Positions 1,268 through 18,026 of a DNA stretch of 64,000 nucleotides are shown here, piece after piece. The notes beneath the pieces are model-generated. The model saw only the letters and a program-made list of their open reading frames with translations. It did not search any database and was not told the DNA's origin. Position 1 is the stretch's first letter, and the number at the start of each line of letters is the position of its first letter. The position numbers and the translations under genes are program-made. Source of the DNA: an uncultured delta proteobacterium (GTDB lineage Bacteria; Desulfobacterota; RBG-13-43-22); assembly GCA_963843145.1 (NCBI GenBank), contig CAWJJC010000028.1, positions 672,001 through 736,000 of the forward strand, in the 5' to 3' direction.

Positions 1268-4200
1268 ATGAACCACGAAGCAACCGCGAAAATCGGGGCC
1301 GTTCTGGTCGTTGGGGCCGGTATCTCCGGGATGCAGTCGGCCCTGGACCTGGCCAATGCCGGCTTCAAGGTCTATCTGGCGGACCGCAACGTGAGCATCG
1401 GCGGGGTCATGGCCCAGTTGGACAAGACCTTTCCCACCAACGACTGCTCCACCTGCATGATTTCTCCCAAACTGATCGAAGTGTCCGGCAATCCCAATAT
1501 CGAACTCATCACCCGGGCCCGCCTGGAACACCTTTCCGGGGAACCCGGAAATTTCAAGGCCGAGATTTACCAGGAACCTCGGTTCATCAAGGAGGAAGTC
1601 TGCACCGGCTGCGGGGAGTGCATCCAGGTCTGCCCCGTGGAAGTTCCGGCCGATTTCAACCTGGGATTGAATCGCCGCAAAGCGATCTATCGCCATTTCC
1701 CCCAGGCCGTGCCTTCCACCTTTGCCATCGATCGACGGGGGACTTCCCCCTGCAAAGCGGCCTGCCCGGCCCATATCAGCGTTCAGGGGTACGTGGCCCT
1801 GATCGCCCAGGGGAAGTTTGAGGAAGCCTTGGGATTGATCCGCCGGGAAAATCCGCTGCCTTTCGTCTGCGGGTACGTCTGCACCCACCCCTGTGAGGGG
1901 GTCTGTAAAAGAGCGGAAGTGGAAGAAGCTATCGCCATTCGGGACCTGAAAAGGTTCGTGGCCGACTATGAGGCGAAAACCGGACCGGTCAAACTTCCGG
2001 CCCCGGAGGAAAAGCATATCCAGCGGGTAGCCATAATCGGGTCCGGGCCGGCAGGGTTGACCTGCGCCTATTATCTGGCCCGGCAGGGATACCCGGTCAC
2101 TATTTTTGAAGCGCTGCCCAAAGCCGGCGGTATGCTGACCGTAGGAATCCCCAACTACCGCTTGCCTCAGCAGGTGGTCGACCGAGAGATCGAGGCCATC
2201 AAGAGCTTGGGCGTGTCCATCGAGTTGAACAGCCCCATCGGGTCGGAACGGACTCTGGAGCAACTTAAGGAAGAGGGGTTTGAGGCCGTTTTCACAGCCA
2301 TTGGGGCCCACCAGGGGATTCGACTGGGGGTGGCCGGGGAAGACCTGCCGGGGGTCATGGCCGGGGTGGACCTCCTGCGGCAGTCGGCCCTCGGACAGCC
2401 GGTCCAGGTTGGAAAACGGGTGGCCGTCATCGGGGGCGGAAACGTGGCTATCGATGCCGTACGGTCCGCCCTGCGGCTGGGGTCCGAGGAGGGTCTGGTG
2501 ATCTACCGGCGAACCCGGGAAGAAATGCCGGCTTATGCCGAGGAAATCGAAGAAGCCCTGGAAGAGGGGGTTCGGATCGAATATCTGACGGCCCCGGTTC
2601 GATTTTTGGGGGATGAAAAAGGCAAGCTGAGGGCCTTGGAATGCCTGAAGATGGAACTGGGGGAGCCCGATGAGTCGGGACGACGTCGGCCCGTACCGGT
2701 AGCCGGTTCGGAATTTGAGATACCGGTGGATACGGTGATCACAGCCATCAGCCAGCAGCCGGATTTGGCTAAAATTAAGGTCCCCCAGGGCGTAGCGGTT
2801 TCAAAAAACGGAACCTTTGAGGTGGATCCGATTACCCTGCAGTCCGCGCTTCCCTGGCTGTTTGCCGGCGGGGACGCGGTGCTGGGTCCCCGGACGGTCA
2901 TCGAGGCCATTGCCCAGGGCAAGGAAGCCGCGCTTTCCATAGACCGCTATTTACAGGGCGGGGACCTGTTCGCCGGCCGGGAAAAGGCTTTCGAGATTGC
3001 TGAACCGGAAATTACCGGTGTCCTGAAGGAACCGCGATTCCGACCGCGGCTGCGGGCTCCCGGGGAGCGGCGGCGGGACTTCAGGGAAGTGGTGGAGGTC
3101 ATGACGCCGGAAGAAGCCCGGGCGGAGGCCTCCCGCTGCCTGGCCTGCGGGATCTGCTCGGAATGCTACCAGTGTCTGGAGGCCTGCCAGGCCGGGGCCA
3201 TCGACCACGCCATGGTTGGCGAAAAAATCACCCTACAGGTCGGAGCGGTGATCGCTTCACCGGGGTTTGAGATCTTCGATGCCCGCCTGAAGGAAGAATA
3301 CGGGTACGGGCGCTATCCCAACGTGTTGACCAGCCTGGAATTCGAACGGGTCCTGTCCGCTTCGGGTCCCTTCGGGGGCCATGTCCAGCGGCCCTCCGAC
3401 GGCCGGGAGCCCAAGAGAGTGGCCTGGATACAATGCGTCGGGTCCCGGGATGCTTCAATCAACCGGGAATATTGTTCCTATGTCTGCTGCATGTACGCCA
3501 CCAAGCAGGCTATCATCGCCAAGGAGCATCTGGCGGGCCTGGAGCCCACCATATTTTTTATCGATATCCGGGCCCAGGGAAAGGGCTTTGACCGTTATTA
3601 TGAGCGGGCCAGAGGGGAGCACGGGGTCCGGTATGTCCGCAGTCTGATCTCCCGGGTGGCCCAAGACCCGCAAACCCGGGACCTGCAGATTTCTTATATC
3701 GATGAGGACAACCGGTTTCAGACTGAGGAATTCGACTTGGTCATTTTGTCCGTGGGACTGACTCCCCATTCGCAGTCGGGCCCGCTGGCCAAATGCCTGG
3801 AGATCCGGACGGATCGTTTCGGTTTTTGCGTGAACCCGCCTCTGGATACGGTGGGCACGACCCGACCGGGAATCTTTGTGGGCGGGGTGTTCCAGAACCC
3901 CAAGGACATCCCGGAGACCGTCACCCAGGCCAGCGGGGCCGCGGCGGCCGCTGCCGCCTTGCTGACCGAGGCGCGGGGTACTCAAATCAAAGAGGTTTTT
4001 TTCCCCGAGGAAAGGTCCGTTCAGGCGGAGGAAGCCCGCATCGGGGTCTTTATCTGCCATTGCGGGATCAACATCGCCGGGATTGTGGACGTAGCTCAGG
4101 TTTCCGAATACGCCCGGACGCTGCCCGGGGTGGTTTATACCGATCACCTGCTGTTCACCTGTTCCACCGACAGTCAGGAGCGGATGCTCCAGTTGATCAA

Positions 4201-5690
4201 GGAACAACGGGCTGAACCGGGTGGTGGTGGCCTCCTGCTCGCCGCGCACCCATGAAGGCCTCTTCCGGAATACCCTGCGGAAAGCGGGTTTGAACAAATA
4301 CCTGTTCGAGATGGCCAACATCCGGGATCAATGCTCCTGGGTCCACCAGGCCGATCCCGCTGTCGCCACAGAAAAGGCCGAGGACCTGGTGCGCATGGCC
4401 GTGGCCCGGGCCGGTTTACTGGAACCCTTGTACGAGATCCCCTATGAGGTGAATCAGCGGGCCCTGGTAGTGGGCGGCGGAATCGCCGGCATGACGGCCG
4501 CCCTGAACCTGGCCGATCAGGGTTTTGAGACCTTCCTGATCGAACGTGCCGCTCAATTGGGAGGCATAGCCCGACGTATCCACCGGACCTTGGAAGGGGT
4601 GGATGTCCAGCAGTATCTCCAAGAGACCATTCACCGAGTGGTCGGCCATCCCCGTATCCGGCTTTTTATCGACACCGAACTGCTGGAGACCACCGGGACC
4701 GTGGGTCAATTCAGCAGCGTCTTTTCCCACCGGGGGGAAAAGGGGACTTTGAAACACGGGGCCGTGGTGGTGGCCGCCGGCGGGTTGGAGTACCGGCCGA
4801 CGGAGTACCATTATGGCGACCATCCCCGGATCCTGACCCAACTGGAACTTCAGGAAAGACTGTTTGCCGATCCGGAGGGAATAGGGAAACCCGGGTCGGT
4901 GGTCATGATCCAGTGCGTCGGTTCCCGGGACGAGGACCACCCCTACTGCAGTCGGGTTTGTTGTTCCACGGCCGTCCATAACGCCTTACGGATCAAGGAA
5001 ATCAGTCCGCAGACCGAGGTGGTGGTTCTTTACCGGGATATCCGCACCTATGCGCAGAAGGAACTGTATTACAAACAGGCCCGGGAGGCCGGGGTACGCT
5101 TCGTCCGCTTTGAACCGGAAAAGCGGCCGGAAGTGGATCTGGTGGAGGGGAATCTCGAAGTCCGGGTCTTTGACCAGAACCTGAAGGCCGGACTGCGTCT
5201 GCGTCCCGAGTGGATCGCCCTGTCGGCGGCTATCCGGCCGGCGGTGGAAAGCCGGTCTTTGGCGCAGACGCTGAAGCTGCCTTTTGACGCCGACGGCTTT
5301 TTTCTGGAGGCCCACATCAAGTTGCGGCCCCTGGATTTCGCCAACGCCGGGATGTTCCTTTGCGGCCTGGGACACGGTCCGAAGTTCCTGGAAGAGAGCA
5401 TCGCCCAGGCCAAGGGAGCGGCGGCTCGGGCGGCCACGGTGCTGGCCCAGAAACAAACCATGGTGGGCGGGCCGGTGGCCGAAGTCAACGAAGAGCTGTG
5501 CGTCGCCTGTCTGACCTGCCTGCGGGTCTGCCCCTTCGGGGTACCCCGGATCAACGAACGGCATTTCGCCCAGATCGACCCGGCCGCCTGCCGGGGCTGC
5601 GGGAACTGCGCCAGCGCTTGCCCCCAGGGAGCGATCCAGGTCGGCCACTACCTGGACGATCAGTATGTGGCCCTGTTGGAGGCGTGTTAG
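1268..5690 (+). CDS. hdrA: Large HdrA-family flavoprotein (HdrL-type: HdrA with inserted GltD-like NAD(P)H domain plus second HdrA module), split by one extra base at ~4206-4211
   Basis: LDKTFPTNDCSTC, GSGPAG and GGGNVA Rossmann motifs, IQCVGSR...CSxVCC twice, ferredoxin motifs; ORFs 1268-4255 and 4221-5690 join as ...GLNRVVVASCSPRTHE if one base is removed. Confidence 0.88.
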
Positions 5691-5853
5691 GGCGCAAAGC
5701 GCAAAGCGTAAGGCGTGAGTCGTAAGGCGTAAGGGGTAAAGGCATTGAAAATAACGGATTACTAATACGATCGTTTTTGAAAGGGCTAAACCGGAAGGAG
5801 CAAAGCCGTCTGGTTTTTTAACGACTTGCGCCTTACGACTTGCGCCTCGCGAG
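5691..5853. repeat. Heptamer-periodic inverted-repeat element
   Basis: 7 units like GGCGTAA/GGCGCAA (5691-5739) and 5 reverse-complement units like TTGCGCC/TTACGAC (5819-5853). Confidence 0.8.
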
Positions 5854-5863
5854 TTTTCTTAGA

Positions 5864-6295
5864 TTGGAATCATTCGAACCCAAACTCATCGCCATGGTCT
5901 GCACTTATTGCACCTATACGGCTGCGGATATGGCCGGTTCCCTGCGGCTTCAATATCCGCACAACGTGCGGATCATTAAATACCTTTGCACCGGCAAGGT
6001 GGATATCCAGCATATGCTGAAGGCCTTTGAGGGTGGGGCCGATGCCCTGCTGGTGGGCGGCTGAGCCATCGGGGACTGCCATTTCCTGGAAGGAAATCTC
6101 AGAGCCAAGGAGCGGGTGGAGTACACCAAAACCCTGTTAACGGAAATCGGCCTGGAACCCGAACGGCTGGAAATGTTTCATATCGGGGCCTCCGATGCCC
6201 CGCAGTGGGCCCAGGCGGTGACCGAGATGACGGAGCGGGCCAGGGGGTTGGGTCCGAATCCATTGAAAAAGTTAAAAGTTCAAAATGCGGAGTAG
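5864..6295 (+). CDS. mvhD: MvhD/FlpD [2Fe-2S] subunit, selenocysteine-containing (TGA 6062-6064)
   Basis: FEPKLIAMVCTYC...CTGKVD...VGG-TGA-AIGDCHFLEGN...IGLEPERL...LGPNP; frame stays open to TAG 6293-6295; TGA occupies the Cys of the GCxxGDCH motif; TTG start inferred. Confidence 0.9.
6081..6097 (+). promoter_or_regulatory. Putative bacterial SECIS apical hairpin
   Basis: ATTTCCT-GGA-AGGAAAT perfect stem with G-containing loop, starting 17 nt after the in-frame TGA. Confidence 0.7.
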
Positions 6296-6355
6296 AGTCT
6301 TTTTGAAAGGAATGGTGACTCAAGCAAGGAGGAGTTCTTAAATGGGAATTATAAA

Positions 6356-7039
6356 ATGATCGTCGCCCAACGCAAACCCTTTGCTGAAATCAAAAGGGCT
6401 TTAGCCCCTTATACGAATATCCTGGTGGCCGGGTGCGGGACCTGTGTGGCGGTCTGCCTGGCCGGGGGGAAAAAAGAGGTGGGTCTCTTGGCCAGCCAGC
6501 TCCGGATGAGTTTCGGCCTGGAGAAGAAGGAAGTGAAGATCTCCGAAGTGACCCTGGAACGGCAGTGCGATCGGGAGTTCCTGGAGATGGCCGGGAAAGA
6601 AGTGGAAGAGGCCGAGGCCGTGCTCTCCCTGGCCTGCGGGGCCGGGATCCAGTTCCTGGCTGAAGTCTATCCCCAACGGCCCGTGTATCCGGGGGTGAAT
6701 ACCACCTTCATCGGCGTGGCTGAGGCCGCCGGTCTCTGGACCGAGCGTTGCCGGGCCTGCGGAGATTGCCTGCTGGCGGAGACCGGCGGGATCTGCCCGA
6801 GGACCATCTGCGCCAAGGGGCTCAATAACGGGCCCTGCGGGGGCATGCTGGACGGGAAATGCGAGGTGGATCCGGAACGCCCCTGTGCCTGGGTGCTGAT
6901 TCATGATCGGCTGAGCCGGGAGGGGCGTTTGGCAGACTTGGAAGCGGTCAGGCCCCCCACGGACTTTGCCCGGCAAACCCAGCCCGGGAAAGTGACTCAC
7001 GCGGCTTATTTGCGGAGGTATCATGGCGACTCCAAGTAA
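6356..7039 (+). CDS. metV: Methylenetetrahydrofolate reductase small (MetV-type) subunit
   Basis: GCGTCVAVC, ERQCD, ERCRACGDC, GGICP..CAKGLNNGPCGG, CEVD..CAW. Confidence 0.88.
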   Translation: MIVAQRKPFAEIKRALAPYTNILVAGCGTCVAVCLAGGKKEVGLLASQLRMSFGLEKKEVKISEVTLERQCDREFLEMAGKEVEEAEAVLSLACGAGIQFLAEVYPQRPVYPGVNTTFIGVAEAAGLWTERCRACGDCLLAETGGICPRTICAKGLNNGPCGGMLDGKCEVDPERPCAWVLIHDRLSREGRLADLEAVRPPTDFARQTQPGKVTHAAYLRRYHGDSK

Positions 7040-7901
7040 ATTTGCCCAAGACTTGGCCTCGGAGGAGTTCATCCTCACCGCTGAACTCGACCCTCCCAAG
7101 GGAGCGGACCCGGCGGTAGTTCAAAAAAAGATAGCCGCGCTTAAAGAGAAGGTCCAGGCCGTGGTGGTCTCGGATAACCACTCGGCCCGGATGCGCATGG
7201 CCCCGCTGGGTATCTGCCGAACCCTCCTTGATCAGGGACTGGAGCCGATCCTGACCCTGACCGGCCGGGACCGCAACCGTCTGGCCCTGCAATCCGATCT
7301 GCTGGCCGCCTTCAGTCTGGGAATTCAAAATGTATTGGCCGTAACCGGGGATCACACCTCCTGGGGGGACCATCCCCAGGCCAAGCCGGTGTATGATCTG
7401 GATTCGGTGCAACTTCTGAAGACCCTGAGCGCCTTGAATCGAGGCCAGGACCTTTCCGAAAATCCTTTGGAGGGCGCCCCGCCCCATTTTACGGTGGGAG
7501 CGGTAGTTCCCCTGGCGGCCAATCCCTTGGAACCGGTGATCATGAAGTTTCGCAAAAAAGCGGCCCAAGGCGTGGATTTTTTTATCAGTCACCCCCTTTT
7601 CGATTTAAAAAACGCGGATGAATTTTTTAAGCAGACCCCTGAGATCAAGACACCGCTTCTGGCTACCGTCTGTCTGCTGAAGTGGGATCAAATTGTCGGT
7701 TACCGCCCCGGGAACCTCCCGGGAATCTTTCTCCCCGAGGCGGTGTCGGAACAGTTTAAATCCTGGAAAGAGGAGACCTACGAGTCCAGGACCTGGGAGG
7801 TCGCCGGGAAGCTGATAGCAGCCGTGAAAAAAGACGGCCGGTTTCGAGGGGTGCATTTGATGCTGTCCGGAGAGGAAGAACGGGTAGGAGATCTGGTTTA
7901 G
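7023..7901 (+). CDS. metF: MetF-like methylenetetrahydrofolate reductase flavoprotein (divergent)
   Basis: TAELDPPKG, RDRNRLALQSDL, TGDH, VYDLDS; overlaps metV. Confidence 0.85.
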   Translation: MATPSKFAQDLASEEFILTAELDPPKGADPAVVQKKIAALKEKVQAVVVSDNHSARMRMAPLGICRTLLDQGLEPILTLTGRDRNRLALQSDLLAAFSLGIQNVLAVTGDHTSWGDHPQAKPVYDLDSVQLLKTLSALNRGQDLSENPLEGAPPHFTVGAVVPLAANPLEPVIMKFRKKAAQGVDFFISHPLFDLKNADEFFKQTPEIKTPLLATVCLLKWDQIVGYRPGNLPGIFLPEAVSEQFKSWKEETYESRTWEVAGKLIAAVKKDGRFRGVHLMLSGEEERVGDLV

Positions 7902-7963
7902 AATAGTGGATGTATTTTTATTCTTCACGGGTCACGCTCTGAACTTGGCGGTTCAATAACGAA

Positions 7964-9031
7964 ATGAACCTGCAGAATCCAAAAGTACTGATCCTTGGCG
8001 GCGGGATCGCCGGACTGACAGCGGCATTGGCCTTGAACCGGTTGGGCGTATCCCTGGAGCTGCTGGAGAAAACCGCCGTCCTGGGCGGCGCGGCCCGGAA
8101 TTTCTGCTGTAAAGCAACCGATGTCTGCCGCCAGTGCGGGGCCTGTCTGGTAAACGATGCCCTCCGGGCCCTGATGCCGGCCGCACTGGCCGAGGCGCCT
8201 TCGCTGAGGATCCGGTTGAGATCCGAATTAACGGAAATTAGCCGGGAGGCCAAGGAATTTCTCTATAGCTATCGCGGCCCTGAAGGGGCCGGGGAAGGCC
8301 GGGCCGAGGCGCTGCTTCTGGCCACCGGCTTCACCCCCTTCAGGGCGGAAGACAAACCTCAATACGGCTACGGCCGTCTGCCCAATGTCCTCACCGGTTT
8401 GGACCTGGAAAAACAAATCAAAGAAACCGGTGCGGTGGTAAGACCCTCCGACCTTCAGACTCCCCAGTCCATCGCCTTCATTCAATGCGTTGGTAGTCGT
8501 GACCTGCATCTGGGACACCCGTTCTGCTCCCAGGTTTGTTGCGGATACGCGCTGCGTCTGGCCGGCCTGATTCGCCACCGTACCCCTGGAACGGCGGTGA
8601 CGATTTTCTACATGGACATCCAGAACTTTGGGAAAGATTTTTCCCGGTTTCTGGATGAGGCTCGGCAGCAGATGCGTTTTATTCGCTCCATCCCGGGAGA
8701 TATTCAGGGAGGGGAAAACGATCGGCTCCTGCTGACCTATCAACAGGATGACGGCCTGCCGAGTCAAAAGGAAACCTTCGACCTGGTGGTCCTTTCGATC
8801 GGTTTAATGCCGGGAGCCGATTTGATCGGGCTTAGTCAAAAGATCAATCTTCCGCTGAACGCCGACGGGTTTTTAACAAAAGATGGAGACCGGTTTTCCC
8901 TTTCTCCGGCCGAAGGGGTATTTTTTGCAGGGACCGTTTCCGGTCCCAAAAGCATTTCCCGATCGGTTTCCCAGGCCCAACAAGCCTCCGAAGAGCTGGT
9001 CCAATTTTTGAAGGGGAGGGGCCTATCGTGA
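7964..9031 (+). CDS. Short HdrA/QmoA-like FAD and FeS subunit
   Basis: GGGIAG, CKATDVCRQCGAC, YGYG, IQCVGSRD...CSQVCC. Confidence 0.85.
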   Translation: MNLQNPKVLILGGGIAGLTAALALNRLGVSLELLEKTAVLGGAARNFCCKATDVCRQCGACLVNDALRALMPAALAEAPSLRIRLRSELTEISREAKEFLYSYRGPEGAGEGRAEALLLATGFTPFRAEDKPQYGYGRLPNVLTGLDLEKQIKETGAVVRPSDLQTPQSIAFIQCVGSRDLHLGHPFCSQVCCGYALRLAGLIRHRTPGTAVTIFYMDIQNFGKDFSRFLDEARQQMRFIRSIPGDIQGGENDRLLLTYQQDDGLPSQKETFDLVVLSIGLMPGADLIGLSQKINLPLNADGFLTKDGDRFSLSPAEGVFFAGTVSGPKSISRSVSQAQQASEELVQFLKGRGLS

Positions 9032-10764
9032 TTCCCCTCGCGGAATTTCAGAAAAGGCCCAGGGTTTTAGTCGTGGGGGGGGGATTGACGGCCCTGGAAG
9101 CCGCCAGCCGATTGATCGCTTTCGGGTATGAGGTGCTGGTCGCTTATCCGGAGGCGGAACTTCGGACGGTGAAATCCTTGCTCCCGGAAGACCGGAAAAT
9201 GCCGGGTTACGCGCGGGATCTGCTGGATAGAATGAAAACCCAAGAGCGGGTTTCTTTTTATCCGGAAACCCTGGTGGGGTCGATTTCCGGGTTTGCTGGG
9301 GATTTCGAGGTGCAAATCCAGTCGCCCCAAAAAGAATGGCTTGAGCCGGTGGGGGCGATCGTCCTGGCCCCGGAGTTGGTTTCAACCGGAACGTCTTTTC
9401 CCGATCCCTTGAGTTCTTCCGGGCAAATAGTCCTCCTGGATCAATTGGTGGAGGAATTAAGCGCACCTTCCGGTACCTCCCGGGGTATTTATTCGTTGAA
9501 TTCCGCTTCCTACGCGGCTTTTCTGATCGGGCTGAACGGCGCCGGGGGAACGGCCGCCATGGCCCAGGCCTTGGAGTCGGCGATCATCCTCCGGAAAAAA
9601 TTCGAGGTCCAGGTTTATTTTTTTACCGGAAATGTCAAGGTGGCCGAGGAGGGACTGGAGCGGCTCTACCTGGAAGCCCGTGACGCGGGGGTGGTTTTTT
9701 TTAAACTGGAGGCTGAAAAACTGGAATTTCTGAAAAAGGGCGACCAGGTTACGCTCCAGTTCATTGATCCCCTGCTGGGGCAGCCCTTTGAATTGCTGCC
9801 GGACCTGCTGGTCGTCGATTCGCGGCCGCTTCTTCCCGCCGACGTGCAGTCCCTGGCGCTATCGACCCAATTGGGATTGGATCCCGCCGGTTACCTGCAA
9901 TCGGGCAACGTGCACCTCTGGCCCCAGGGGTTGGACCGGACCGGCATCTTTGCCGCCGGTCCCGGGAAAGGCCCGTTGATGGTCGCAGCCGCCATCGAGG
10001 AAGGGCGGGGAGCGGCCTTGTCGGTCCACCAATTTTTCGAGGGGCGCCCTGCGGAACCCCTGGACCGCGAGGTGGTGGTCGATAAGGGCCTGTGCACCGT
10101 CTGCCTGACCTGTCTGCGCTTTTGCCCTCACCAGGCCATCGGCTGGACCCATCGGATATTCATCCACCCCCTGGCCTGCCGGCGCTGCGGCATCTGCGCC
10201 AGCGAGTGCCCTATGGATGCCATTCAGATCGCCGGGTACTCCGATTCGGAGGTGGAACAACGGCTGCTGGAAATCAGCCGGCAGTGGGAAGAGAGGAGGG
10301 CCGGGGATCCCCGGATCCTCGTTTTCGGCTGCCGACGGTCGGCCGGGATGGCCTGGGACGAAATGACGCAAGGCGCCAGTCGTAAGGCGCAAGGCGAAAA
10401 AAAAGAAATTCCGACAAGCTGTTCCTGGGATCAGGGATCGGTGGAATTTATCGGGTTGCCGTGCGCCGGGAAGCTGGACCCGGATTTTCTGCTGAAAGCT
10501 CTGTCCCTGGGCGCTGATGGGGTGCTGGTCCTGGCCTGTCCGGAAGAGAATTGCCGATCCAACCACGGCAACACCTATGCCCGAGATCGATTAGCGGAAG
10601 CCTCGGATTATTTGGAAGAAGCGGGCCTTGATCGCCGGCGCCTCCGGTTTGAGCATATTTCCAGCAACCGGGTATTTCTTTTGGATGAGGTCCTTCAAGA
10701 CCTTATTAAAGGTATAAAAGGGTTGGAGGGGAGGGCACCCGCGGAGCATGAAAATAAGGATTGA
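9028..10764 (+). CDS. Degenerate HdrA module fused to 2x[4Fe-4S] and MvhD domains (QmoB-like architecture)
   Basis: VVGGG; CTVCLTC..CP, CRRCGIC..CP; C-terminal PCAGKLD...GADGVLVLAC...C...GN; lacks the QCVGSR/CC cluster motif. Confidence 0.8.
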   Translation: MIPLAEFQKRPRVLVVGGGLTALEAASRLIAFGYEVLVAYPEAELRTVKSLLPEDRKMPGYARDLLDRMKTQERVSFYPETLVGSISGFAGDFEVQIQSPQKEWLEPVGAIVLAPELVSTGTSFPDPLSSSGQIVLLDQLVEELSAPSGTSRGIYSLNSASYAAFLIGLNGAGGTAAMAQALESAIILRKKFEVQVYFFTGNVKVAEEGLERLYLEARDAGVVFFKLEAEKLEFLKKGDQVTLQFIDPLLGQPFELLPDLLVVDSRPLLPADVQSLALSTQLGLDPAGYLQSGNVHLWPQGLDRTGIFAAGPGKGPLMVAAAIEEGRGAALSVHQFFEGRPAEPLDREVVVDKGLCTVCLTCLRFCPHQAIGWTHRIFIHPLACRRCGICASECPMDAIQIAGYSDSEVEQRLLEISRQWEERRAGDPRILVFGCRRSAGMAWDEMTQGASRKAQGEKKEIPTSCSWDQGSVEFIGLPCAGKLDPDFLLKALSLGADGVLVLACPEENCRSNHGNTYARDRLAEASDYLEEAGLDRRRLRFEHISSNRVFLLDEVLQDLIKGIKGLEGRAPAEHENKD

Positions 10765-10770
10765 CCAGGA

Positions 10771-10863
10771 TTCGTCATTCCGGACAAGCGAAGCGCGATC
10801 CGGAATCCAGCCTCGGATAAGCTCTGGAGGGCCTGGATACCGGATCAAGTCCGGTATGACGAA
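10771..10863. repeat. REP-like palindromic element
   Basis: TTCGTCATTCCGGAC ... GTCCGGTATGACGAA terminal inverted repeat with internal CCGGAATCCAG/CTGGATACCGG pair. Confidence 0.75.
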
Positions 10864-10907
10864 AAAAAGCCTGAAAAAGCGGTGATAGATTCTATTTTCG
10901 TACTAAT

Positions 10908-11384
10908 ATGGAACGTATTGATCTCAGAAAACTTGACCCGGATTTCAAGCATCGGCTGGCCCGGGAACTGGGCGGGGAGCATATCCGCAATTGCTATGCC
11001 TGCGGGGTCTGTTCGGCCCGGTGTCCCATCGAAAAGATCGAACCGGAATTCAACCCCCGGAAGATGATTCGGATGATTCTCCTGGGAATGGAGGAGGACC
11101 TGCTTAAACAGGATCTTCTCTGGCATTGCTCCAACTGCTACACCTGCCAGGAGAGCTGTCCGGAAAAAGTGAATTTCACCGAAGTGATTTTTGCTTTGAG
11201 AAATATGGCCGTTCGCCAGGGCCTGGCCCCCCCGGGTATGGGTGCGGCCCAGAACCTCCTCGGTCAGCAGGGGCGGATGTATGAAGTGGGCGAATTCGAA
11301 AATGAAAAGCGGCAGGAACTGGGGTTGCCGAAGATTAAGATGGATACCGTAAGCATTAGAAAAATATTGGAAGATAAAGAATAA
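10908..11384 (+). CDS. hdrC: Heterodisulfide reductase subunit C
   Basis: CYACGVCSARCP, FNPRKMIR, WHCSNCYTCQESCP. Confidence 0.92.
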   Translation: MERIDLRKLDPDFKHRLARELGGEHIRNCYACGVCSARCPIEKIEPEFNPRKMIRMILLGMEEDLLKQDLLWHCSNCYTCQESCPEKVNFTEVIFALRNMAVRQGLAPPGMGAAQNLLGQQGRMYEVGEFENEKRQELGLPKIKMDTVSIRKILEDKE

Positions 11385-11390
11385 CGGAGG

Positions 11391-11523
11391 TTAAACTCGA
11401 AACTCGAAATCCGAAACAAATTCAAATGACCAAATATCAAAATTCGAAACCTTCCCGTTTTAATCATTTGAATTTTGGAAATTCGTGCTTGTTTCGGATT
11501 TCGTGCTTCGAATTTCGGATTTA
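11391..11523. repeat. Palindromic miniature element (CGAAAT/TTTCG family), copy 1
   Basis: CGAAATCCGAAACAAATTCAAATGA ... TCATTTGAATTT...GCTTGTTTCGGATTTCG; same arms at 59488-59757. Confidence 0.85.
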
Positions 11524-11539
11524 GGGTTTTGCCATATTT

Positions 11540-12421
11540 ATGCGATACGCCTTTTTCCTGGGCTGCACCGTCCCGGTGCGCAACTTAAATTATGAATTGG
11601 CCTCTCGCCGGGTGGCTGAAAGGCTGGAGCTCGAGCTGGTGGACCTGGAAGAATTCCAGTGCTGCGGATTTCCCCTGAAGTCTATCAGTTTTATCGATTC
11701 CCTGGTCGTCGCCGCCCGCAATCTGGCCCTGGCCGAGCAGGCCGGACTCCCGGTCTGTACCCTCTGCAGCGCCTGCGGCGGGTCTTTGAGTGAGGCTCAT
11801 CATCTGCTGGAACAGCATCCGGAACTCAAGGCCCAGGTCAATGAGCGCTTGCGTGTCTTGGGTCTGGAATATAAGGGTTCTTCCGAGGTCAAGCATTTTG
11901 TCCGGGTTTTATATGAGGAAGTGGGCCTGGGAAAGATAGCCGAGAAAATCAGTCGCCCCCTGACCGGTTTTTCTTTTGCCCCCCATTACGGGTGCCATTA
12001 TATCAAACCGGCCGAAGCAACGGGGGGGCTGGACCCGGTGGAAGATCCGATCACCCTGACCCGGCTGATCGAGGTCACCGGGGCCTCCGCGACCGTGTAT
12101 CCTTCACTGCTTCAGTGCTGCGGTGGAGGCGTCCTAGGGGCCAAAGAGGACCTGGCCAACACCCTGGCAGGTGAAAAATTGGGGGAATTGAATCAGTTAG
12201 GCACTACCGGGCTGGTGGTGATCTGCCCCTTTTGCAACGTTATGTTTGAGGGACAGCAAAAGAAAATCGAGAAGAAACTGGATCAGAAACTGAAGGTGCC
12301 GGTACTCTATTACCCGCAACTGTTGGGTCTGGCTATGGGGTTCACCCCGGATCAACTGGGTTTCAAGTTGAACCGGGTTAAGGACAAGGAGTTCCTTAAA
12401 AAGATGGAGGCGGCTAAATGA
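11540..12421 (+). CDS. hdrB: Heterodisulfide reductase subunit B (two CCG domains)
   Basis: YAFFLGC, QCCG, CSAC, HYGCH, QCCG, CPFC, QLLGLAMG. Confidence 0.93.
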   Translation: MRYAFFLGCTVPVRNLNYELASRRVAERLELELVDLEEFQCCGFPLKSISFIDSLVVAARNLALAEQAGLPVCTLCSACGGSLSEAHHLLEQHPELKAQVNERLRVLGLEYKGSSEVKHFVRVLYEEVGLGKIAEKISRPLTGFSFAPHYGCHYIKPAEATGGLDPVEDPITLTRLIEVTGASATVYPSLLQCCGGGVLGAKEDLANTLAGEKLGELNQLGTTGLVVICPFCNVMFEGQQKKIEKKLDQKLKVPVLYYPQLLGLAMGFTPDQLGFKLNRVKDKEFLKKMEAAK

Positions 12422-12436
12422 AGGAGGGATTGCAAC

Positions 12437-12471
12437 AATAATTAATAATCAATTGTTAATTATTAATTATT
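12437..12471. repeat. AT-rich palindrome family, copy 1
   Basis: AATAATTAATAATCAATTGTTAATTATTAATTATT; relatives at 17085, 18027, 53022. Confidence 0.75.
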
Positions 12472-12584
12472 AAAATCATCAGGTTATGGCTTCAGCTCAT
12501 CCGTTTTAAATTCATTTATCGCGGGTGCCCACCCCGGGCAGCGCGGTTTAGCCAATAAATCCAGAGGAATAAAGGAGGAGCGTC

Positions 12585-13016
12585 ATGGAGATCGAAGGGT
12601 ATGATTTTCCCGATGAATTATGGTATGATAAGAACCACTTCTGGGCCCGGATCGAAGGGGATACGGTCGTCATGGGTACCACCGACTTTGCCCAGAAACT
12701 GGCCGGCGAAATCGGATATGTGGAACTGCCGGAAGCCGGACAAAAAGTGACCCAGGGCAAGCCTTTCGGTTCCATCGAATCCGGTAAATGGGTGGGACGG
12801 ATTTATGCGGTCCTTTCCGGTCAGGTGACGGAGGTCAACGAGGCCTTGGAGGACGAACCGGAATTGATTAATAACTCGGCGTATGATCAAGGCTGGATCT
12901 GCAAGCTTTCTCCTGAAAACCTGGACGCGGAAAAAGCCAACCTGATGACGGCCGCTGATCTGAAGCCCTTTATCGAAGCCGAGGTGGCTCGGGTGAAGGA
13001 ATTGATGAATAAATAA
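12585..13016 (+). CDS. Lipoyl-carrier protein, GcvH family (LbpA-like ESGKWVG motif)
   Basis: GcvH features (HFWAR, GTTDFAQ, EVNEAL..PELIN..Y..GW); lipoyl Lys in GSIESGKWVG; AAGGAGG RBS. Confidence 0.88.
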   Translation: MEIEGYDFPDELWYDKNHFWARIEGDTVVMGTTDFAQKLAGEIGYVELPEAGQKVTQGKPFGSIESGKWVGRIYAVLSGQVTEVNEALEDEPELINNSAYDQGWICKLSPENLDAEKANLMTAADLKPFIEAEVARVKELMNK

Positions 13017-13020
13017 AATC

Positions 13021-13118
13021 AAGAAAAAAGGTTAAAGGATAAAGGAAAAAGGATAGAGGACAAGCAGGGACCAACAAGGTTTGGGTGTTTTTTCTCGTTT
13101 CTCGATCCTCGATCCTTG
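13021..13118. repeat. Heptamer-periodic element (AAAGGAT / ATCCTCG family)
   Basis: AAAGGTT AAAGGAT AAAGGAA AAAGGAT AGAGGAC ... TCTCGTT TCTCGAT CCTCGAT CCT. Confidence 0.6.
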
Positions 13119-13132
13119 AGGAAGGAGTCTTT

Positions 13133-15715
13133 ATGGGTTATATTGATGAATTGAAACAGGTGCTGGGTCCGGAAAACGTCAATACCGGGGAAATCGATTG
13201 CTTTAGTGTTTCCCGGGATCTCTCGGTACACGAAGGGTTTCCGGAGGTCATCGTCTTTGCCCGCAGTACCGAGGAAGTGGTGGGCGTGGTCAAAGTCGCG
13301 GCAGCCCATAAAATCCCGGTGACGGCCCGGGGGGCTGGAACCAGCGCGACCGGGGCGGCCCTGGCCTCCAAGGGCGGTATTCTGCTCGATCTCTCCCACA
13401 TGAATAAGATCAAAGAATTGAATAAGAACGACCGGTACGTCAGCGTGGAACCGGGGATCATCTGCAACGCCTTGAACGCCCAGTTGGAACCGACCCATTT
13501 TTTCCCTCCGGACCCCGGCAGCGCTCCTATCTGCACTATCGGTGGGATGATTGCTTGCAACGCCAGCGGGGTCCGGGCCGTGAAATACGGGACCACCCGG
13601 GACTATGTCATGGGGTTGGAGGTAGTCCTGGCCGACGGCCGGCTTATTCATACCGGATCGCTGGCTCCCAAAACCGCGGCCGGATATGATCTGACGCACC
13701 TCTTCGCCTCATCGGAAGGGACCTTGGGCATTATTACCTCCGCCACGTTGAAGATTCTACCCAAACCTCCCTATATCGCTTTTGCCAAAGCTTCCTTCCC
13801 TTCCATCGAAACGGCCGGCCGAACCGTGGAAAAGATCCTCTCTTCCGGGATCCGCCTGTCTTCGTGTGAAATCCTGGACGATATGTCGATCGAGGTGGTC
13901 AAAAAGGCCATGAAGCTCGACTTTCCGCCCGAAGTGAAATGCGTCCTCTTCATGGAAATCGACGGCCACAAGCTGGAAGTCCAGGATTACATTTCCCGGA
14001 TCAACGCCCTCTGTAAAGAAATGGGGGGCATAGAAAACGAATGGTCGGACGACCCGGCCCAACGATTGGCCATGTGGTCGGCCCGACAAGGTCTGACTCC
14101 CGCCTTGTCCAGGATCAAACCGGGTTACCGGTTGATACCGATCGTGGAAGATTTCGGAATGCCCATCAGCCAAATCCCGGCCACGATCACCGCGATCCAG
14201 GACGTGGGGAAGCGGCATAATTTCCCGATCGCCACCTTCGGCCATATCGGGGATGGAAATTTACACGCCGTCATTGTCATGGATGTGCGCAAAAAGGAAG
14301 AGTGGGAAACCTTGCGCAAGATCGCTCAGGATTTCATCGACCTCACCCTCAAATTCCGCGGCACTTTGACGGCGGAACATGGCCTGGGTATGGCCAAGTC
14401 GCCCTATATTAAGGCCGAACTGGGAAACGCCCTGGAGGTCATGGAACAAATTAAGAAGACCCTGGATCCGGACAACATCTTCAATCCGGGGAAGATGGGC
14501 TTTGCGGACAGCCCCCAAGACATTCTGGGACAGTTCGCCTTCGCCTATCTTCTGGAACATCCGGAAGACCGCCAAAGCTTCGGGGAAAAGATTGATAACG
14601 AGCTCCTGGCTTGCATCCAGTGCGGGTTCTGCCGGGCTGGTTGTCCCACGTACACCCAGACCGGCCTGGAGTCCATGAATGCTCGAGGCCGGGTCCTGCT
14701 GGCTTTTAATTTGATGAGCGGTCGTCTTAAACCCTCGGCCGAAATGGCAACCCGACTCTACCAGTGCACCAACTGCCTGAACTGCAAATACACCTGCCCT
14801 TCCCGGGTGGAGGTGGCGGATATCGTCCAGGCCGCCCGTAAGCGTCTGGCGGAAAACGGCTTTTTGCCCGAGGTCTTTCAAGCCGGCAGTAAGAGTATTA
14901 TCCAGTACGGGAATCCTTTCGGAGAACCCCGGGAAAAGCGGACCGACACCTTCCCGACCGGATTTCAGCCGGCGCAAAAGGGGGCCGAGGTGCTGCTCTT
15001 TGGCGGCTGCGTGGGGTCCTATCAGGATGTCAACCTGATACCCAACCTGATGGCTATTTTAGACAAGGCCGGAATCTCCTATACGGCCCTGGGGCAGGAA
15101 GAGGACTGTTGCGGGTATCTGAGTTACCTGATCGGGCGGGAAGAGGATTTCCGGACTTGCGTGGCCGGTAATACCCGAAAATTTGCCGAGTTGGGCGTTA
15201 AAGAAATCGTTACCAGTTGCCCCGGCTGCTACCGGACTTTGAGTAAACTTTACCCCGCCTACGGGGGCAGTTCGGCGATCAAGGTCCATCATGTCACTAC
15301 CTTCCTGAACGACTTGCTGAGCCAGGGGAAAATCCCGCTGAAGGGCAACGGCGCTCAGAAGATTGCCTATCATGACCCCTGCGACCTGGGCCGCCACATG
15401 AACATCTTTGAGGAGCCGCGTAATGTGTTGAAAAGCCTGCCCGGCGTGGAGTTGACCGAGTTTAAACTCAACCGTCTGCTGGCCAAGTGCTGCGGCAGCG
15501 GGGGAGGAGTGAAAGGTTTTGACAACCCCCTCAGTCAGGACATCGCCTACCAGCGCGTCCTCCAGGCCCTGGAAGTGGGGGCCGAGGTGATCGTTTCCGC
15601 CTGCCCCTCCTGCAAGAGTAACCTGACCCAAGGGGCGGCCCGGGTACGGAAGGAAAAGAAAGGAAAGATCAAAGTCAAGGATATTACCGAGGTCGTGGCG
15701 GCGGCTTTGGCTTAA
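13133..15715 (+). CDS. FAD-linked 2-hydroxyacid dehydrogenase (GlcD/LdhD-like) fused to 2x[4Fe-4S] and two CCG domains (GlcF/HdrD-like)
   Basis: RGAGTS, PPDPGS, YGTTRDYV, SEGTLG, GHIGDGNLH, AEHGLG, NPGK; CIQCGFC..CP, CTNCLNC..CP, DCCG, YHDPC, KCCG, CPSC; AAGGAG RBS before ATG 13133. Confidence 0.9.
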   Translation: MGYIDELKQVLGPENVNTGEIDCFSVSRDLSVHEGFPEVIVFARSTEEVVGVVKVAAAHKIPVTARGAGTSATGAALASKGGILLDLSHMNKIKELNKNDRYVSVEPGIICNALNAQLEPTHFFPPDPGSAPICTIGGMIACNASGVRAVKYGTTRDYVMGLEVVLADGRLIHTGSLAPKTAAGYDLTHLFASSEGTLGIITSATLKILPKPPYIAFAKASFPSIETAGRTVEKILSSGIRLSSCEILDDMSIEVVKKAMKLDFPPEVKCVLFMEIDGHKLEVQDYISRINALCKEMGGIENEWSDDPAQRLAMWSARQGLTPALSRIKPGYRLIPIVEDFGMPISQIPATITAIQDVGKRHNFPIATFGHIGDGNLHAVIVMDVRKKEEWETLRKIAQDFIDLTLKFRGTLTAEHGLGMAKSPYIKAELGNALEVMEQIKKTLDPDNIFNPGKMGFADSPQDILGQFAFAYLLEHPEDRQSFGEKIDNELLACIQCGFCRAGCPTYTQTGLESMNARGRVLLAFNLMSGRLKPSAEMATRLYQCTNCLNCKYTCPSRVEVADIVQAARKRLAENGFLPEVFQAGSKSIIQYGNPFGEPREKRTDTFPTGFQPAQKGAEVLLFGGCVGSYQDVNLIPNLMAILDKAGISYTALGQEEDCCGYLSYLIGREEDFRTCVAGNTRKFAELGVKEIVTSCPGCYRTLSKLYPAYGGSSAIKVHHVTTFLNDLLSQGKIPLKGNGAQKIAYHDPCDLGRHMNIFEEPRNVLKSLPGVELTEFKLNRLLAKCCGSGGGVKGFDNPLSQDIAYQRVLQALEVGAEVIVSACPSCKSNLTQGAARVRKEKKGKIKVKDITEVVAAALA

Positions 15716-15746
15716 AGACAACTCGTAATGCCTAGAGGAACATAAG

Positions 15747-16967
15747 ATGAAGGCGATTCAGTCTGCCAAAATAATGAAAAAGATCATGGCCGATCACTTC
15801 CTGAATCTCGACCGGGCTGCCCGGGCGGGAAAACCCAAGGTGGCCTGGTGCACCAGCGTGGGACCGGCCGAACTGCTGCGGGGGATGGGTTTCCTGGTCT
15901 ATTTCCCCGAAAATCACGGGGCCATGCTGGGCGCCACCCGAATGGCCACGGAATTCATCCCCGTGGCCAATGCCAGGGGCTACTCGCCGGAGATCTGTTC
16001 TTACCTGACCAGCGATGTGGGATCCTACTTGAAAAAAACGACGCCTCTGACGAAAGCCTACGGGCTGGAGTCCGTTCCCCGGCCCGACGTGCTGGTCTTT
16101 AATACCAACCAGTGCCGGGATGTGAAGGATTGGTTTTCCTGGTACTCACGGGAACTGCAGGTGCCGGTGTTGGGAATCCATTCCTATCGCAATATCGGGA
16201 CCATCACCGAGCATGAAATACGGGATATTGCGGAACAGATCAAAGGCTTGATACCCACCCTGGAGGAGGTTAGCGGGGAAAAATTCGACCTGGACCGCTT
16301 CCGGGAGGCGGTGGGTCTCTCCCGGGATACCTCCCGGCTTTGGCGGGCCGTACTGGAGACCGCCGCCACCATTCCCTCTCCCTGGACCTTTTTTGACGCC
16401 ACCATTCATATGGGTCCGGCCGTGGTGGCCAGGGGCACCCGGGAGGCGGTGGATTACTATCGGATACTGCTAACGGAGCTCCAGCAACGGGTTAAAGACG
16501 GTGTGGCCGCCATCGAGGGGGAAAAGCACCGCCTGTACTGGGAGGGCATGCCCATCTGGGGGAAATTGCGTCCTTTGTCGGACCTACTGGAATCTCTCCG
16601 TACCTGTGTGGTGGCCTCCACCTACTGCAACAGTTGGATCTTCGATCAATTAGACCCCGACGATCCCTTCGATAGCATGGCCCGGGCCTATACCGAACTG
16701 TTTATCGTGCGGGATGAAAGCTACAAAGAGCAGTATATCCAGAATTGTTTTGAACGATTCAAATTTGACGGAATCCTCTTCCATGACGCCCGGACCTGCC
16801 CCAATAATTCCAACAGCCGCTATGGGATGCCGGAACGGCTGGCCCGCAAATTAGGGATATCCACGGTAACCATTAACGGGGATCTCAATGATTTGCGTTG
16901 TTACTCCGAAGAGCAGGCCAGGACCCAGATCGAAGCCTTTGTGGAACAGTTGGAGGAAAAGCGCTGA
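15747..16967 (+). CDS. 2-hydroxyacyl-CoA dehydratase / class I benzoyl-CoA reductase family subunit
   Basis: PAELL..MG...FPENH, GYSPEICSY, NQC, DGILFHDARTC, IEAFVE. Confidence 0.85.
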   Translation: MKAIQSAKIMKKIMADHFLNLDRAARAGKPKVAWCTSVGPAELLRGMGFLVYFPENHGAMLGATRMATEFIPVANARGYSPEICSYLTSDVGSYLKKTTPLTKAYGLESVPRPDVLVFNTNQCRDVKDWFSWYSRELQVPVLGIHSYRNIGTITEHEIRDIAEQIKGLIPTLEEVSGEKFDLDRFREAVGLSRDTSRLWRAVLETAATIPSPWTFFDATIHMGPAVVARGTREAVDYYRILLTELQQRVKDGVAAIEGEKHRLYWEGMPIWGKLRPLSDLLESLRTCVVASTYCNSWIFDQLDPDDPFDSMARAYTELFIVRDESYKEQYIQNCFERFKFDGILFHDARTCPNNSNSRYGMPERLARKLGISTVTINGDLNDLRCYSEEQARTQIEAFVEQLEEKR

Positions 16968-17084
16968 GCGCCCGGCGTATAGCGCCGAGCGCTAAATCCA
17001 AGACCAAAAGGGTTTAGGGAGTAAGCGTGCGGGTATGGGGGTTAGTACGTAAATAGACTCAATGAGTCTGCAACCCAGCGAAGC

Positions 17085-17127
17085 CAATAATCAATAATCA
17101 ATGGTTAATGATAAATTGATTATTAAT
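17085..17127. repeat. AT-rich heptamer palindrome, degenerate copy
   Basis: CAATAAT CAATAAT CAATGGT TAATGAT AAATTGA TTATTAA. Confidence 0.6.
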
Positions 17128-18020: not shown

Positions 18021-18026
18021 AAAGAA

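Follow-up and report, generated by a model that had tools for sequence, protein, structure and literature searches.

Enzymes built from HdrA, HdrB, HdrC and MvhD modules are known as HdrABC-MvhAGD from methanogens and as the HdrCBA-MvhD-MetVF methylene-tetrahydrofolate (methylene-THF) reductase from Moorella thermoacetica. For the methanogen heterodisulfide reductase (Hdr) the disulfide is CoM-S-S-CoB. To our knowledge, the chemistry of coenzyme M (CoM) and coenzyme B (CoB) is absent from bacteria, and outside methanogens little is known of the physiological disulfide on which HdrB, HdrD and other CCG-domain enzymes act; an exception is DsrC, the accepted "bacterial heterodisulfide" in sulfate reducers. 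This gap stands in the way of understanding how syntrophs, complete oxidisers and acetogens carry out flavin-based electron bifurcation, and it extends to the Moorella-type Hdr-MetVF complex. A precedent for a lipoate-binding protein that works with Hdr-type enzymes is the sHdr-LbpA system of sulfur oxidisers. Here we describe a stretch of 64,000 nucleotides (in the following "the window") from an uncultured delta proteobacterium of the Desulfobacterota (positions 672,001 to 736,000 of contig CAWJJC010000028.1, GenBank assembly GCA_963843145.1), in which a lone gene of the GcvH family is found between hdrB and a gene for a GlcD-type dehydrogenase fused to CCG domains (GlcD-CCG). Its product, which we call the carrier, is very probably a dedicated lipoyl carrier tied to CCG enzymes.

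LbpA has been defined by a conserved lipoyl-lysine, by two conserved cysteines near the termini and as a distinct clade (Cao et al. 2018, PMC6067878; Kümpel et al. 2026 preprint 10.64898/2026.10.01.755906). It is the surface charge and not the cysteines that governs the recognition of LbpA by its ligase (PMC6067878; preprint 10.64898/2026.10.01.755906), and the surface of LbpA is less acidic than that of GcvH and possesses basic regions (Kümpel et al. 2026 preprint 10.64898/2026.10.01.755906).

The carrier and its genomic neighbourhood

The carrier possesses the lipoyl motif ESGKW (GSIESGKWVG), with K68 as the predicted lipoyl-lysine, and a single cysteine, C106. This lysine is invariant within ESGKW in 26/26 aligned clade members, and the full stretch GSIESGKWVG occurs in 98/121 clade proteins (the query and its closest 120 database relatives), the remainder including close variants. 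The position of Cys106 is occupied by cysteine in 104 and by phenylalanine in 14 of these 121 proteins.

The genome of the window (5.35 Mb in 32 contigs) holds seven GCV_H matches, the carrier included. A canonical gcvT-gcvH-gcvPA operon, in which GcvH carries ESVK, is located on contig C19 and is nearly duplicated on C18, so that the possibility of the carrier being the only H protein of the genome was rejected. In the 64-kb window, tblastn with the genome's own gcvT, gcvPA and lpd gave no match, in agreement with the preliminary description, which had noted the absence of gcvP, gcvT and gcvL there. For comparison, 20 related genomes were searched, and 18 of them yielded 60 further GCV_H genes, which were extracted with 4 kb of flanking sequence at either end and labelled by their neighbours; G003:C27, G002:C28, G016:C15 and a second G018 match were left out of this extraction. 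Quick trees placed the Hdr-linked copies in a starred clade (95* and 98*). A careful tree of 84 rows, which omitted the DsbD-linked group, the formate dehydrogenase (FDH)-fusion group and ten other long-branch rows, separated the Hdr-linked and LbpA-type sequences from the gcvTP-linked, Lpd-linked and Sir2/Lgt-linked ones in a 100/100 split. Across 21 related genomes, HdrB or GlcD-CCG was found within 4 kb of 9/9 carrier-scoring copies versus 0/57 of the other extracted copies, with L133 counted among the carriers through its 165.4 profile bits. Because of the canonical operon on another contig and the 100/100 split, we think, on sequence grounds, that the carrier is distinct from the cell's glycine cleavage H protein. 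The dedicated H-family carrier outside glycine cleavage that the preliminary description had assumed is thus upheld, and the tree does not group it with canonical GcvH.

The remaining H-family copies of the genome have surroundings of their own. A copy with ESSKV (G000:C22:234258-234662; L010:10259-10630) adjoins genes for an Lpd-like flavoprotein and FmdE as well as an FDH-like operon. A paralogue without lipoyl-lysine (…IEAQLSV…) and with an acidic poly-Glu tail (G000:C22:337706-338149; L011:9719-10150) adjoins a Sir2-family gene (L011:10160-10975) and lgt, a pairing that is kept in 12 related genomes and recalls the GcvH-L/SirTM pairs of Firmicutes. A third one is fused to a Cys-rich N-terminal domain (G000:C9:24675-25649; L012:9676-10623) and adjoins a 1290-residue FDH/GltD fusion. 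The ESSKV copy and the Cys-rich fusion copy each form their own conserved group in the tree, and a further match is a member of the NCBIfam family "GcvH_rel_desulf" that adjoins DsbD. Outside these genomes, a gcvH gene on an Aliiroseovarius plasmid turned out as an ordinary gcvT-gcvH-gcvP copy.

A scan of one genome per species yielded 219 loci with relatives of the carrier, of which 80 were kept; in 42 of these, here called full loci, the sequence extends for 6 kb or more to either side. Neighbours were identified by tblastn with the window proteins, counting the GlcD-CCG fusion at 45% identity or more. By their database names, the loci belong to Syntrophaceae, Syntrophobacterales, Syntrophorhabdus, Desulfarculia, Desulfomonile and Desulfocarbo indianensis, among others. 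Within 6 kb of the carrier, the full loci contain HdrB in 34/42, GlcD-CCG in 22/42 and any CCG protein in 39/42 cases, and an acyl-CoA ligase in 28/42 (50/80 of all loci); at least one of these is present in 42/42. The ligase orthologues share 57-95% identity, with 66-69% in the distant Syntrophaceae-type layouts, and a HadB-like protein is found at this distance in 18/80 loci. At 400 nucleotides (nt) or less from the carrier, the 80 loci show HdrB in 32, GlcD-CCG in 35, an HdrD-like protein in 11, the ligase in 19 and HdrC in 11 cases.

At least four gene orders are realized around the carrier. In this window and in Desulfarculia it is hdrA..hdrC-hdrB-carrier-glcD::CCG; in Syntrophaceae the order carrier-hdrC-hdrB-hdrL-mvhD is preceded by a divergent ligase gene. 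A third layout has a divergent glcD::CCG gene before carrier, an hdrD-like gene, a gene for a qmoC-like membrane protein and the ligase, and in L087 a divergent ligase gene precedes carrier-lipoate ligase (lplA)-glcD::CCG. Among cultured species, Desulfocarbo indianensis SCBM (L059) possesses hdrA-hdrCB-carrier-glcD::CCG, and a metagenome-assembled genome assigned to Desulfomonile tiedjei (L084) possesses hdrCB-carrier. The genome of the window contains 41 CCG-domain matches in about 24 genes, from which we calculate that a random gene in 5.35 Mb would have a CCG gene within 6 kb in about 6% of cases, so that the vicinity of carrier and CCG genes is more than chance. Adjacency to hdrB and GlcD-CCG, which the preliminary description had seen at this one locus, is thus conserved in several Desulfobacterota lineages with differing gene orders. 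Two loci without hdrCB next to the carrier continue differently: in L033 (10824-19224) there follow a molybdopterin oxidoreductase and a formate-hydrogenlyase-like set (NiFe large subunit, Mrp-type antiporter, HycI), in L054 (10516-18598) a molybdopterin oxidoreductase, NrfD and a 609-residue CCG protein.

The coupling to MetVF, in contrast, turned out not to be conserved. MetF is found within 6 kb in 9/42 full loci and 10/80 of all loci, and as these are only the closest relatives (L014-L026), we attribute the MetVF link to this lineage rather than to the carrier system, and rejected it as a general feature. This also bears on the idea that the carrier is an extra H protein of the glycine cleavage or reductive glycine pathway, placed near metVF as both pathways use methylene-THF, an argument that has been made for gcvH/lpdA in the Wood-Ljungdahl clusters of clostridia. 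The carrier does pass the NCBIfam cut-offs for GcvH, metVF is part of the same gene string, and gcvH with lpdA in the Wood-Ljungdahl clusters of acetogens (PMC4600107, PMC8515935) is a similar case, which for clostridia is known and unexplained (PMC4600107); lpdA was tested together with MetFV, with a negative result (PMC8515935, where also the HdrA-containing six-subunit type of M. thermoacetica is mentioned). However, with a canonical operon elsewhere, the 100/100 split, an adjacency that tracks HdrB and GlcD-CCG and not MetF, and the co-variation with lipS1 that is described in the next section, we consider an extra H protein very improbable.

Lipoate assembly genes and the relation to LbpA

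On the contig of the window and 440 kb upstream of it (C28:228754-233287; L160:6754-11287), four adjacent genes form the order lipS1-lpl(AB)-lipT-like-lipS2. The lipS1-like product reaches 215.7 bits with NF053742, below the equivalog cut-off of 230, and the lipS2-like product 164.3 bits with NF053743, below the cut-off of 270. The lpl(AB) ligase has 546 residues with a C-terminal extension of about 190 residues, and the lipT-like gene codes for a flavin adenine dinucleotide (FAD) protein of the geranylgeranyl-reductase family. The genome additionally holds lipB/M-lipA on C22. The arrangement lipS1-slpl(AB)-lipT-lipS2 has been shown to mature LbpA (Tanabe et al. 2023, PMC10332631). Only 42% of the LipS1/S2-containing bacteria possess sHdr (PMC10332631).

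In an even sample of 201 genomes of the phylum, the carrier was called at full length and a profile score of at least 155 bits (other H proteins reach at most 142 bits), and lipS1 at an E value of at most 1e-30. The carrier is present in 36/201 genomes (11 families), lipS1 in 39/201 (13 families) and both in 34, which means that lipS1 occurs in 34/36 carrier genomes versus 5/165 genomes without carrier. At the family level this pattern is close to all-or-none, although these are counts and not a test, the genomes being non-independent; the family of the window itself has both in 4/6 genomes and neither in 2/6. The two carrier-only genomes are an assembly of 830 contigs (G143) and one that is 67% complete (G061). 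Among those with lipS1 only, G097 and G130 are 61-62% complete, and in G014, G059 and G038 lipS1 is directly adjoined by a divergent gene of the H family. In six genomes (G126, G029, G056, G089, G093, G044) carrier and lipS1 are 2.5-8.4 kb apart, and in L087 the lipoate-protein ligase gene lies directly between carrier and glcD-CCG. It is thus probably the genome's own lipS1-lpl(AB)-lipT-like-lipS2 pathway that matures the carrier.

The same linkage could be read in the way that the carrier is a lipoyl relay or maturation hub, which is octanoylated and lipoylated first and passes the cofactor on to other proteins as the GcvH of Bacillus does, its proximity to CCG genes being incidental. The ligase gene beside the carrier in L087, the physical linkage to lipS1 in the six genomes and the H-family genes beside lipS1 in G014, G059 and G038 would agree with this. 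A CCG gene within 6 kb in 39/42 full loci, where chance gives about 6%, would not, and no gene for an amidotransferase or an E2 acceptor was found among the clusters scanned, so that we give this relay little credence.

A PDB sequence search with the carrier listed 14 H proteins and no entry named LbpA. For the comparison with LbpA, a plasmid-encoded protein of Acidithiobacillus ferrooxidans (Cys7, Cys142/145, LESGKW) therefore served as reference. To it were added the 120 relatives listed for it in the database, whose hosts include Acidithiobacillus, Thermithiobacillus, Acidihalobacter and Acidiferrobacteraceae; this LbpA-type set was assigned by hallmarks (Cys7, C-terminal Cys, ESGKW) and hosts, not by sHdr context. 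ESGKW is present in 107/121, the N-terminal cysteine in 120/121 and the C-terminal cysteine in 121/121 of these proteins. The preliminary description had taken ESGKW as the LbpA motif as opposed to ESVK, and with the ESVK of the genome's canonical GcvH this distinction proved right. The LbpA-type rows come out of the careful tree as a separate clade with 100/100 support; the branch that leads to it, of length 2.0, attaches to the Hdr-linked group and not to the canonical one, and the carrier lies outside the clade. The gene string of the carrier contains one hdrC, one hdrB, HdrA/HdrL/MvhD parts and metVF, with no sHdr-type hdrC1B1A-hyp-hdrC2B2 cluster and no sulfurtransferases. Membership in LbpA was rejected for the lack of an shdr cluster, the position outside the LbpA-type clade and the missing hallmark cysteines; because of these two cysteines in particular, we classify the carrier, by its sequence features, as LbpA-like and not as an LbpA member. 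Of the LbpA-like carrier in the preliminary description, the motif and the side of the tree therefore stand, and membership in the family does not. If the root lies among the canonical H proteins, LbpA would be sister to the Hdr-linked group or nested in it, with a long-branch caveat and one LbpA subfamily considered.

The A. ferrooxidans plasmid (NZ_CP082239.1, 47 kb; L154, 12059-18104 of the record) carries its LbpA-type gene outside any shdr operon, among genes for a globin, an FAD oxidoreductase, a thioredoxin, two hemerythrins and an HdrD-like "heterodisulfide reductase-related" protein. It is another pairing of a lipoyl carrier with a CCG protein, in this case in an aerobe.

From the likeness to LbpA it could also be proposed that the carrier holds a covalent substrate, either by presenting a sulfane-sulfur or thiol adduct to HdrB, as proposed for LbpA, or by being loaded with an acyl group on the dihydrolipoyl thiol by the ANL-family ligase. 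Apart from the shared ESGKW, the common side of the tree and the presence of LbpA's maturation gene set, this would explain the AMP-ligase as the most constant non-CCG neighbour (28/42 full loci). But in the neighbours scanned, which include the genes at 509-22630, Pfam detected neither TusA nor DsrE nor a rhodanese. Moreover, the carrier lacks the two cysteines of LbpA, and the ligase resembles ordinary fatty/aryl acyl-CoA ligases (FadD5, 286 bits). We think that a covalent substrate is unlikely.

The gene string of the window

The region 1268-19774 is a single co-directional string on the + strand that runs from hdrL through the acyl-CoA ligase (Table 1). The order hdrL-mvhD-metV-metF-hdrA2-hdrA3::mvhD-hdrC-hdrB-GcvH family-GlcD-CCG, as preliminarily described, is borne out by the open reading frame (ORF) listing and the Pfam and NCBIfam scans, which find hdrA, hdrB, hdrC, mvhD, metV and metF all within this one string. 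Three corrections are needed: hdrL contains a frame break, mvhD contains an in-frame TGA, and the string does not end at 15715 but continues to 19774.

Table 1. Features of the gene string; positions are those of the window
Feature	Positions	Strand	Evidence
hdrL, first part: HdrA-type FAD/FeS domains with inserted GltD-like NAD(P)H-binding module	1268-4255	+	Pfam
hdrL, second part: HdrA-type FAD domain and 2x[4Fe-4S] ferredoxin domain	4221-5690	+	
mvhD with in-frame TGA at 6062-6064	5840-6295	+	open only on TGA read-through
metV (zinc/FeS subunit of methylene-THF reductase)	6356-7039	+	PF12225, 2.9e-35
metF (methylene-THF reductase)	7023-7901	+	PF02219, 3.9e-18
hdrA2 (HdrA-type FAD-binding part)	7964-9031	+	Pfam; NCBIfam HdrA2 217.5 bits, below cut-off
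hdrA3::mvhD fusion (HdrA C-terminal part, 2x[4Fe-4S], MvhD/FlpD domain)	9028-10764	+	PF02662, 6.8e-24, residues 471-566
hdrC	10908-11384	+	TIGR03290 102.2 bits, below cut-off; Fer4_8
hdrB, both CCG motifs	11540-12421	+	PF02754 in two stretches; TIGR03288 260.5 bits, below cut-off 345
AT-rich palindromic block in the hdrB-carrier spacer	12428-12477		inverted repeats I1-I8
Hdr-linked lipoyl carrier, 143 residues, H-protein fold	12585-13016	+	PF01597, 2.3e-39
FAD-dependent D-2-hydroxyacid (D-lactate-type) dehydrogenase fusion, 876 residues	13085-15715	+	Pfam
Single HadB/HgdB-like protein (2-hydroxyacyl-CoA dehydratase / benzoyl-CoA reductase superfamily)	15747-16967	+	PF06050, 3.3e-64; 3o3m_A 191.3 bits
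ATP-dependent activase (BcrAD/BadFG family)	17232-18020	+	TIGR00241 197 bits, over cut-off
Acyl-CoA ligase (ANL family)	18191-19774	+	PF00501, 1.1e-74

The first part of hdrL scores 565.7 bits with NCBIfam NF009410 (cut-off 516) and 531.9 bits with HdrA2, which is below the cut-off. Since the two parts are collinear with residues 13-991 and 995-1485 of a single ORF of 1503 residues in the Syntrophaceae locus L037, they are taken as one gene with a frame break of 1 nt near 4208-4220. Here, 13 nt lie between the halves, which are in different frames; in 21/22 relatives the distance is 12 nt and the frame is the same. The break may be an assembly indel or a real lesion; hdrL of L023 is likewise broken. 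In mvhD, read-through across the TGA yields GGU-AIGDCH, with the TGA at the first cysteine position of the motif G-C-x-x-G-D-C-H. This position is TGA in 11/11 copies of the window family and Cys in 14 copies of other clades, a pattern that is expected for selenocysteine, which is therefore the probable meaning of this codon.

In HdrB, residues C9, C41, C42, C76, C79, C152, C193, C194, C229 and C232 are invariant in 26 orthologues, and with two CCG motifs and ten cysteines the protein has the ligands expected for two non-cubane [4Fe-4S] clusters; the cysteine count per CCG motif reportedly follows Wagner et al. 2017. A complex prediction from alignments of HdrB and carrier gave a score of 0.00 in two runs without controls and counts neither for nor against an interaction. 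The spacer between the two genes contains a 50-nt AT-rich, multiply palindromic block in a genome of about 55% G+C. In several relatives the hdrB-carrier gap is only 12-15 nt and the block is absent, and it may represent a candidate operator or promoter insert. In scans for promoters and terminators the number of hits was similar to that in shuffled sequences, so that they do not resolve the operon structure. For window positions 10900-16000 no RNA runs are listed, only eight DNA runs, each with 0.05-0.19 of the words.

The GlcD fusion combines FAD_binding_4, FAD-oxidase_C, Fer4_8 (2x[4Fe-4S]) and two CCG domains in a single chain. Its start is likely the ATG at 13124, behind GGAAGGAG, rather than the GTG at 13085. 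The nearest solved chains are D-lactate dehydrogenase (LDHD, 8jdc, 289.9 bits) and LctD (7qh2_C, 250 bits), and the protein remains below the YdiJ and GlcD equivalog cut-offs (208.6 versus 1350 bits for the YdiJ model). The HadB-like protein, the activase and the ligase at the end of the string suggest a 2-hydroxyacyl-CoA branch, in which their roles can be guessed only.

A possible lipoyl shuttle at CCG sites and its comparison with known systems

We think that an LbpA-related lipoylated carrier, which shuttles between disulfide and dithiol at the CCG sites of its neighbours, is the best overall explanation, and we give it an even chance of being right. The carrier would be lipoylated on K68 via the LipS1/S2 route, and its lipoyl arm would cycle between both states at the non-cubane [4Fe-4S] sites, so as to take the role in these bacteria that CoM-S-S-CoB has for the methanogen Hdr. 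Electrons would move between a D-2-hydroxyacid/2-oxoacid pair and the carrier through the GlcD-FeS-CCG dehydrogenase, and between the carrier and the HdrA/HdrL flavins through HdrB and HdrC; these flavins could connect onward to NAD(P)H, ferredoxin and, in this lineage, MetVF. We infer that electron flow may be oxidative, and then electron-confurcating, or reductive. Three kinds of CCG partners would thus be served, namely HdrB of soluble HdrA-containing complexes, the CCG domains on a D-lactate-type dehydrogenase, and HdrD-like proteins with a membrane partner; by analogy, these may mirror the methanogen modules that handle CoM-S-S-CoB. For the narrower claim that the carrier disulfide is the substrate of the CCG enzymes, arguments for and against appear balanced to us, and the full circuit from lactate via carrier and Hdr to NAD(P)H, ferredoxin and MetVF is doubtful.

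Several points weigh against this explanation. The carrier exceeds the NCBI cut-offs for GcvH (NF002270, 140.9 versus 117; TIGR00527, 121.6 versus 115.85), and its nearest solved relatives are true H proteins (Thermus GcvH 1onl, 105 bits). The LbpA hallmark cysteines are found in the Hdr-linked clade in 0/121 (N-terminal) and 2/121 (C-terminal) proteins, and the net charge of the carrier, as calculated from sequence only, is GcvH-like at -14 (clade median -13, LbpA-type median -6, own canonical GcvH -16). The careful tree, in which LbpA is represented by only one subfamily on a long branch, does not resolve the Hdr-linked rows as a single clade separate from LbpA. There is no CCG gene within 6 kb in 3/42 full loci, one of which (L054) has a CCG protein at +6.7 kb, and because about 24 CCG-domain genes face only one carrier of the Hdr-linked type in the genome, it cannot be a general CCG partner. 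The linkage to the ligase may partly be inherited backbone, since the ligase is also located beside secD in the Syntrophaceae-type loci L033, L037, L054 and L069; in the window's family, it ends the hdr-carrier-glcD string instead. With potentials of about -290 mV for lipoamide, about -190 mV for lactate/pyruvate and -320 mV for NAD(P)H, protein-bound lipoate is roughly isopotential with NAD(P)H and therefore a poor high-potential acceptor for an NADH-driven bifurcation. It would be workable as acceptor with H2, formate or ferredoxin as donors, or if held far from equilibrium. Finally, related GlcD-FeS-CCG fusions such as Dld-II of Shewanella and YdiJ of E. coli are not known to need such a carrier.

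HdrB and the CCG fusion might instead use another acceptor, such as DsrC, a low-molecular-weight disulfide or menaquinone, and the carrier would then have an unrelated role, for example as thiol donor to peroxidases, which certain GcvH-like proteins are proposed to play together with OsmC/Ohr. DsrC has its accepted role in sulfate reducers, the LbpA-type gene on the A. ferrooxidans plasmid is found among hemerythrin, thioredoxin and globin genes, and a GcvH-like protein was proposed as OsmC donor (2026 preprint 10.64898/2026.10.01.755906). Among the clusters scanned, however, there was no peroxidase gene, and the tie to three kinds of CCG proteins across changing gene orders is hard to explain otherwise. 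We consider the use of another acceptor somewhat less likely still than a covalently bound substrate.

If the shuttle explanation is true, it would give the sLpl(AB)-LipS1/S2 pathway a function in anaerobes that lack sHdr, and it would hint at the origin of LbpA. A more far-reaching idea, which we offer tentatively and do not expect to hold as a whole, is that one LipS1/LipS2-matured lipoate carrier could be the "heterodisulfide" of a widespread anaerobic Hdr network of soluble bifurcating HdrABC-type complexes, membrane HdrDE-like modules and CCG-fused dehydrogenases, with the LbpA/sHdr system of aerobic sulfur oxidisers as an offshoot derived from this older anaerobic carrier. The idea would also account for the LipS1/S2 pathway in the majority of LipS1/S2 bacteria, which have no sHdr. 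As the carrier is encoded between two CCG enzymes, keeps this company across lineages and co-varies with a lipoate assembly pathway, it is a concrete, small and expressible candidate substrate for assays of bacterial Hdr enzymes. Genome pipelines label such carriers "glycine cleavage system protein GcvH", which may therefore mislead pathway reconstruction, for example of the reductive glycine pathway. Beyond the preliminary description, the lipS1-lpl(AB)-lipT-like-lipS2 cluster, the co-occurrence with LipS1/S2 and the cysteine test are new. Full-text literature searches brought up no account of anaerobic Desulfobacterota in which HdrABC or GlcD-CCG is associated with a GcvH/LbpA-like carrier, although tables S2-S5 of PMC10332631 (LipS1/S2 by genome), which lay outside this search, may list the lineages.

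Compared with canonical GcvH, the carrier has the same fold and length, the lipoyl-lysine hairpin and scores above the GcvH cut-offs in common, and differs by its location away from gcvT and gcvP and by ESGKW instead of ESVK. The GlcD-CCG fusion shares its GlcD-type FAD domain with Shewanella Dld-II, E. coli YdiJ and LctD of the Ldh-Etf complex (7qh2). With the fused 2x[4Fe-4S] and two CCG domains it has the architecture of the Dld-II/YdiJ type, but its gene has those of a dedicated lipoyl carrier and of Hdr as neighbours. With the methanogen HdrABC-MvhAGD and the Moorella HdrCBA-MvhD-MetVF, the locus shares the HdrA, HdrB, HdrC and MvhD modules, intact CCG motifs and, in the latter case, metVF in the string. 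It is unlike them in that protein-bound lipoate is the candidate disulfide, that HdrA is split over several genes and that HdrL contains a GltD-like NAD(P)H module.

The closest system is sHdr-LbpA of sulfur oxidisers such as Hyphomicrobium denitrificans and Thioalkalivibrio (PMC6067878, PMC10332631, preprint 10.64898/2026.10.01.755906). In both cases a lipoate-binding protein of GcvH fold is encoded beside Hdr-type CCG proteins, with ESGKW, with lipS1-lpl(AB)-lipT-lipS2 genes in the genome and on the side of the tree away from canonical GcvH. Unlike LbpA, the carrier lacks the two conserved cysteines, has an acidic net charge like GcvH and has no sulfurtransferase genes among the neighbours scanned. 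Whereas LbpA is accompanied by hdrC1B1A-hyp-hdrC2B2, the partners of the carrier are a single hdrCB with HdrA/HdrL of the bifurcating type and MvhD, a GlcD-CCG dehydrogenase, or an HdrD-like protein with a membrane module, and its hosts are anaerobic Desulfobacterota which, by their database names, belong to the Syntrophaceae, Desulfarculia, Desulfomonile and Syntrophorhabdus lineages.

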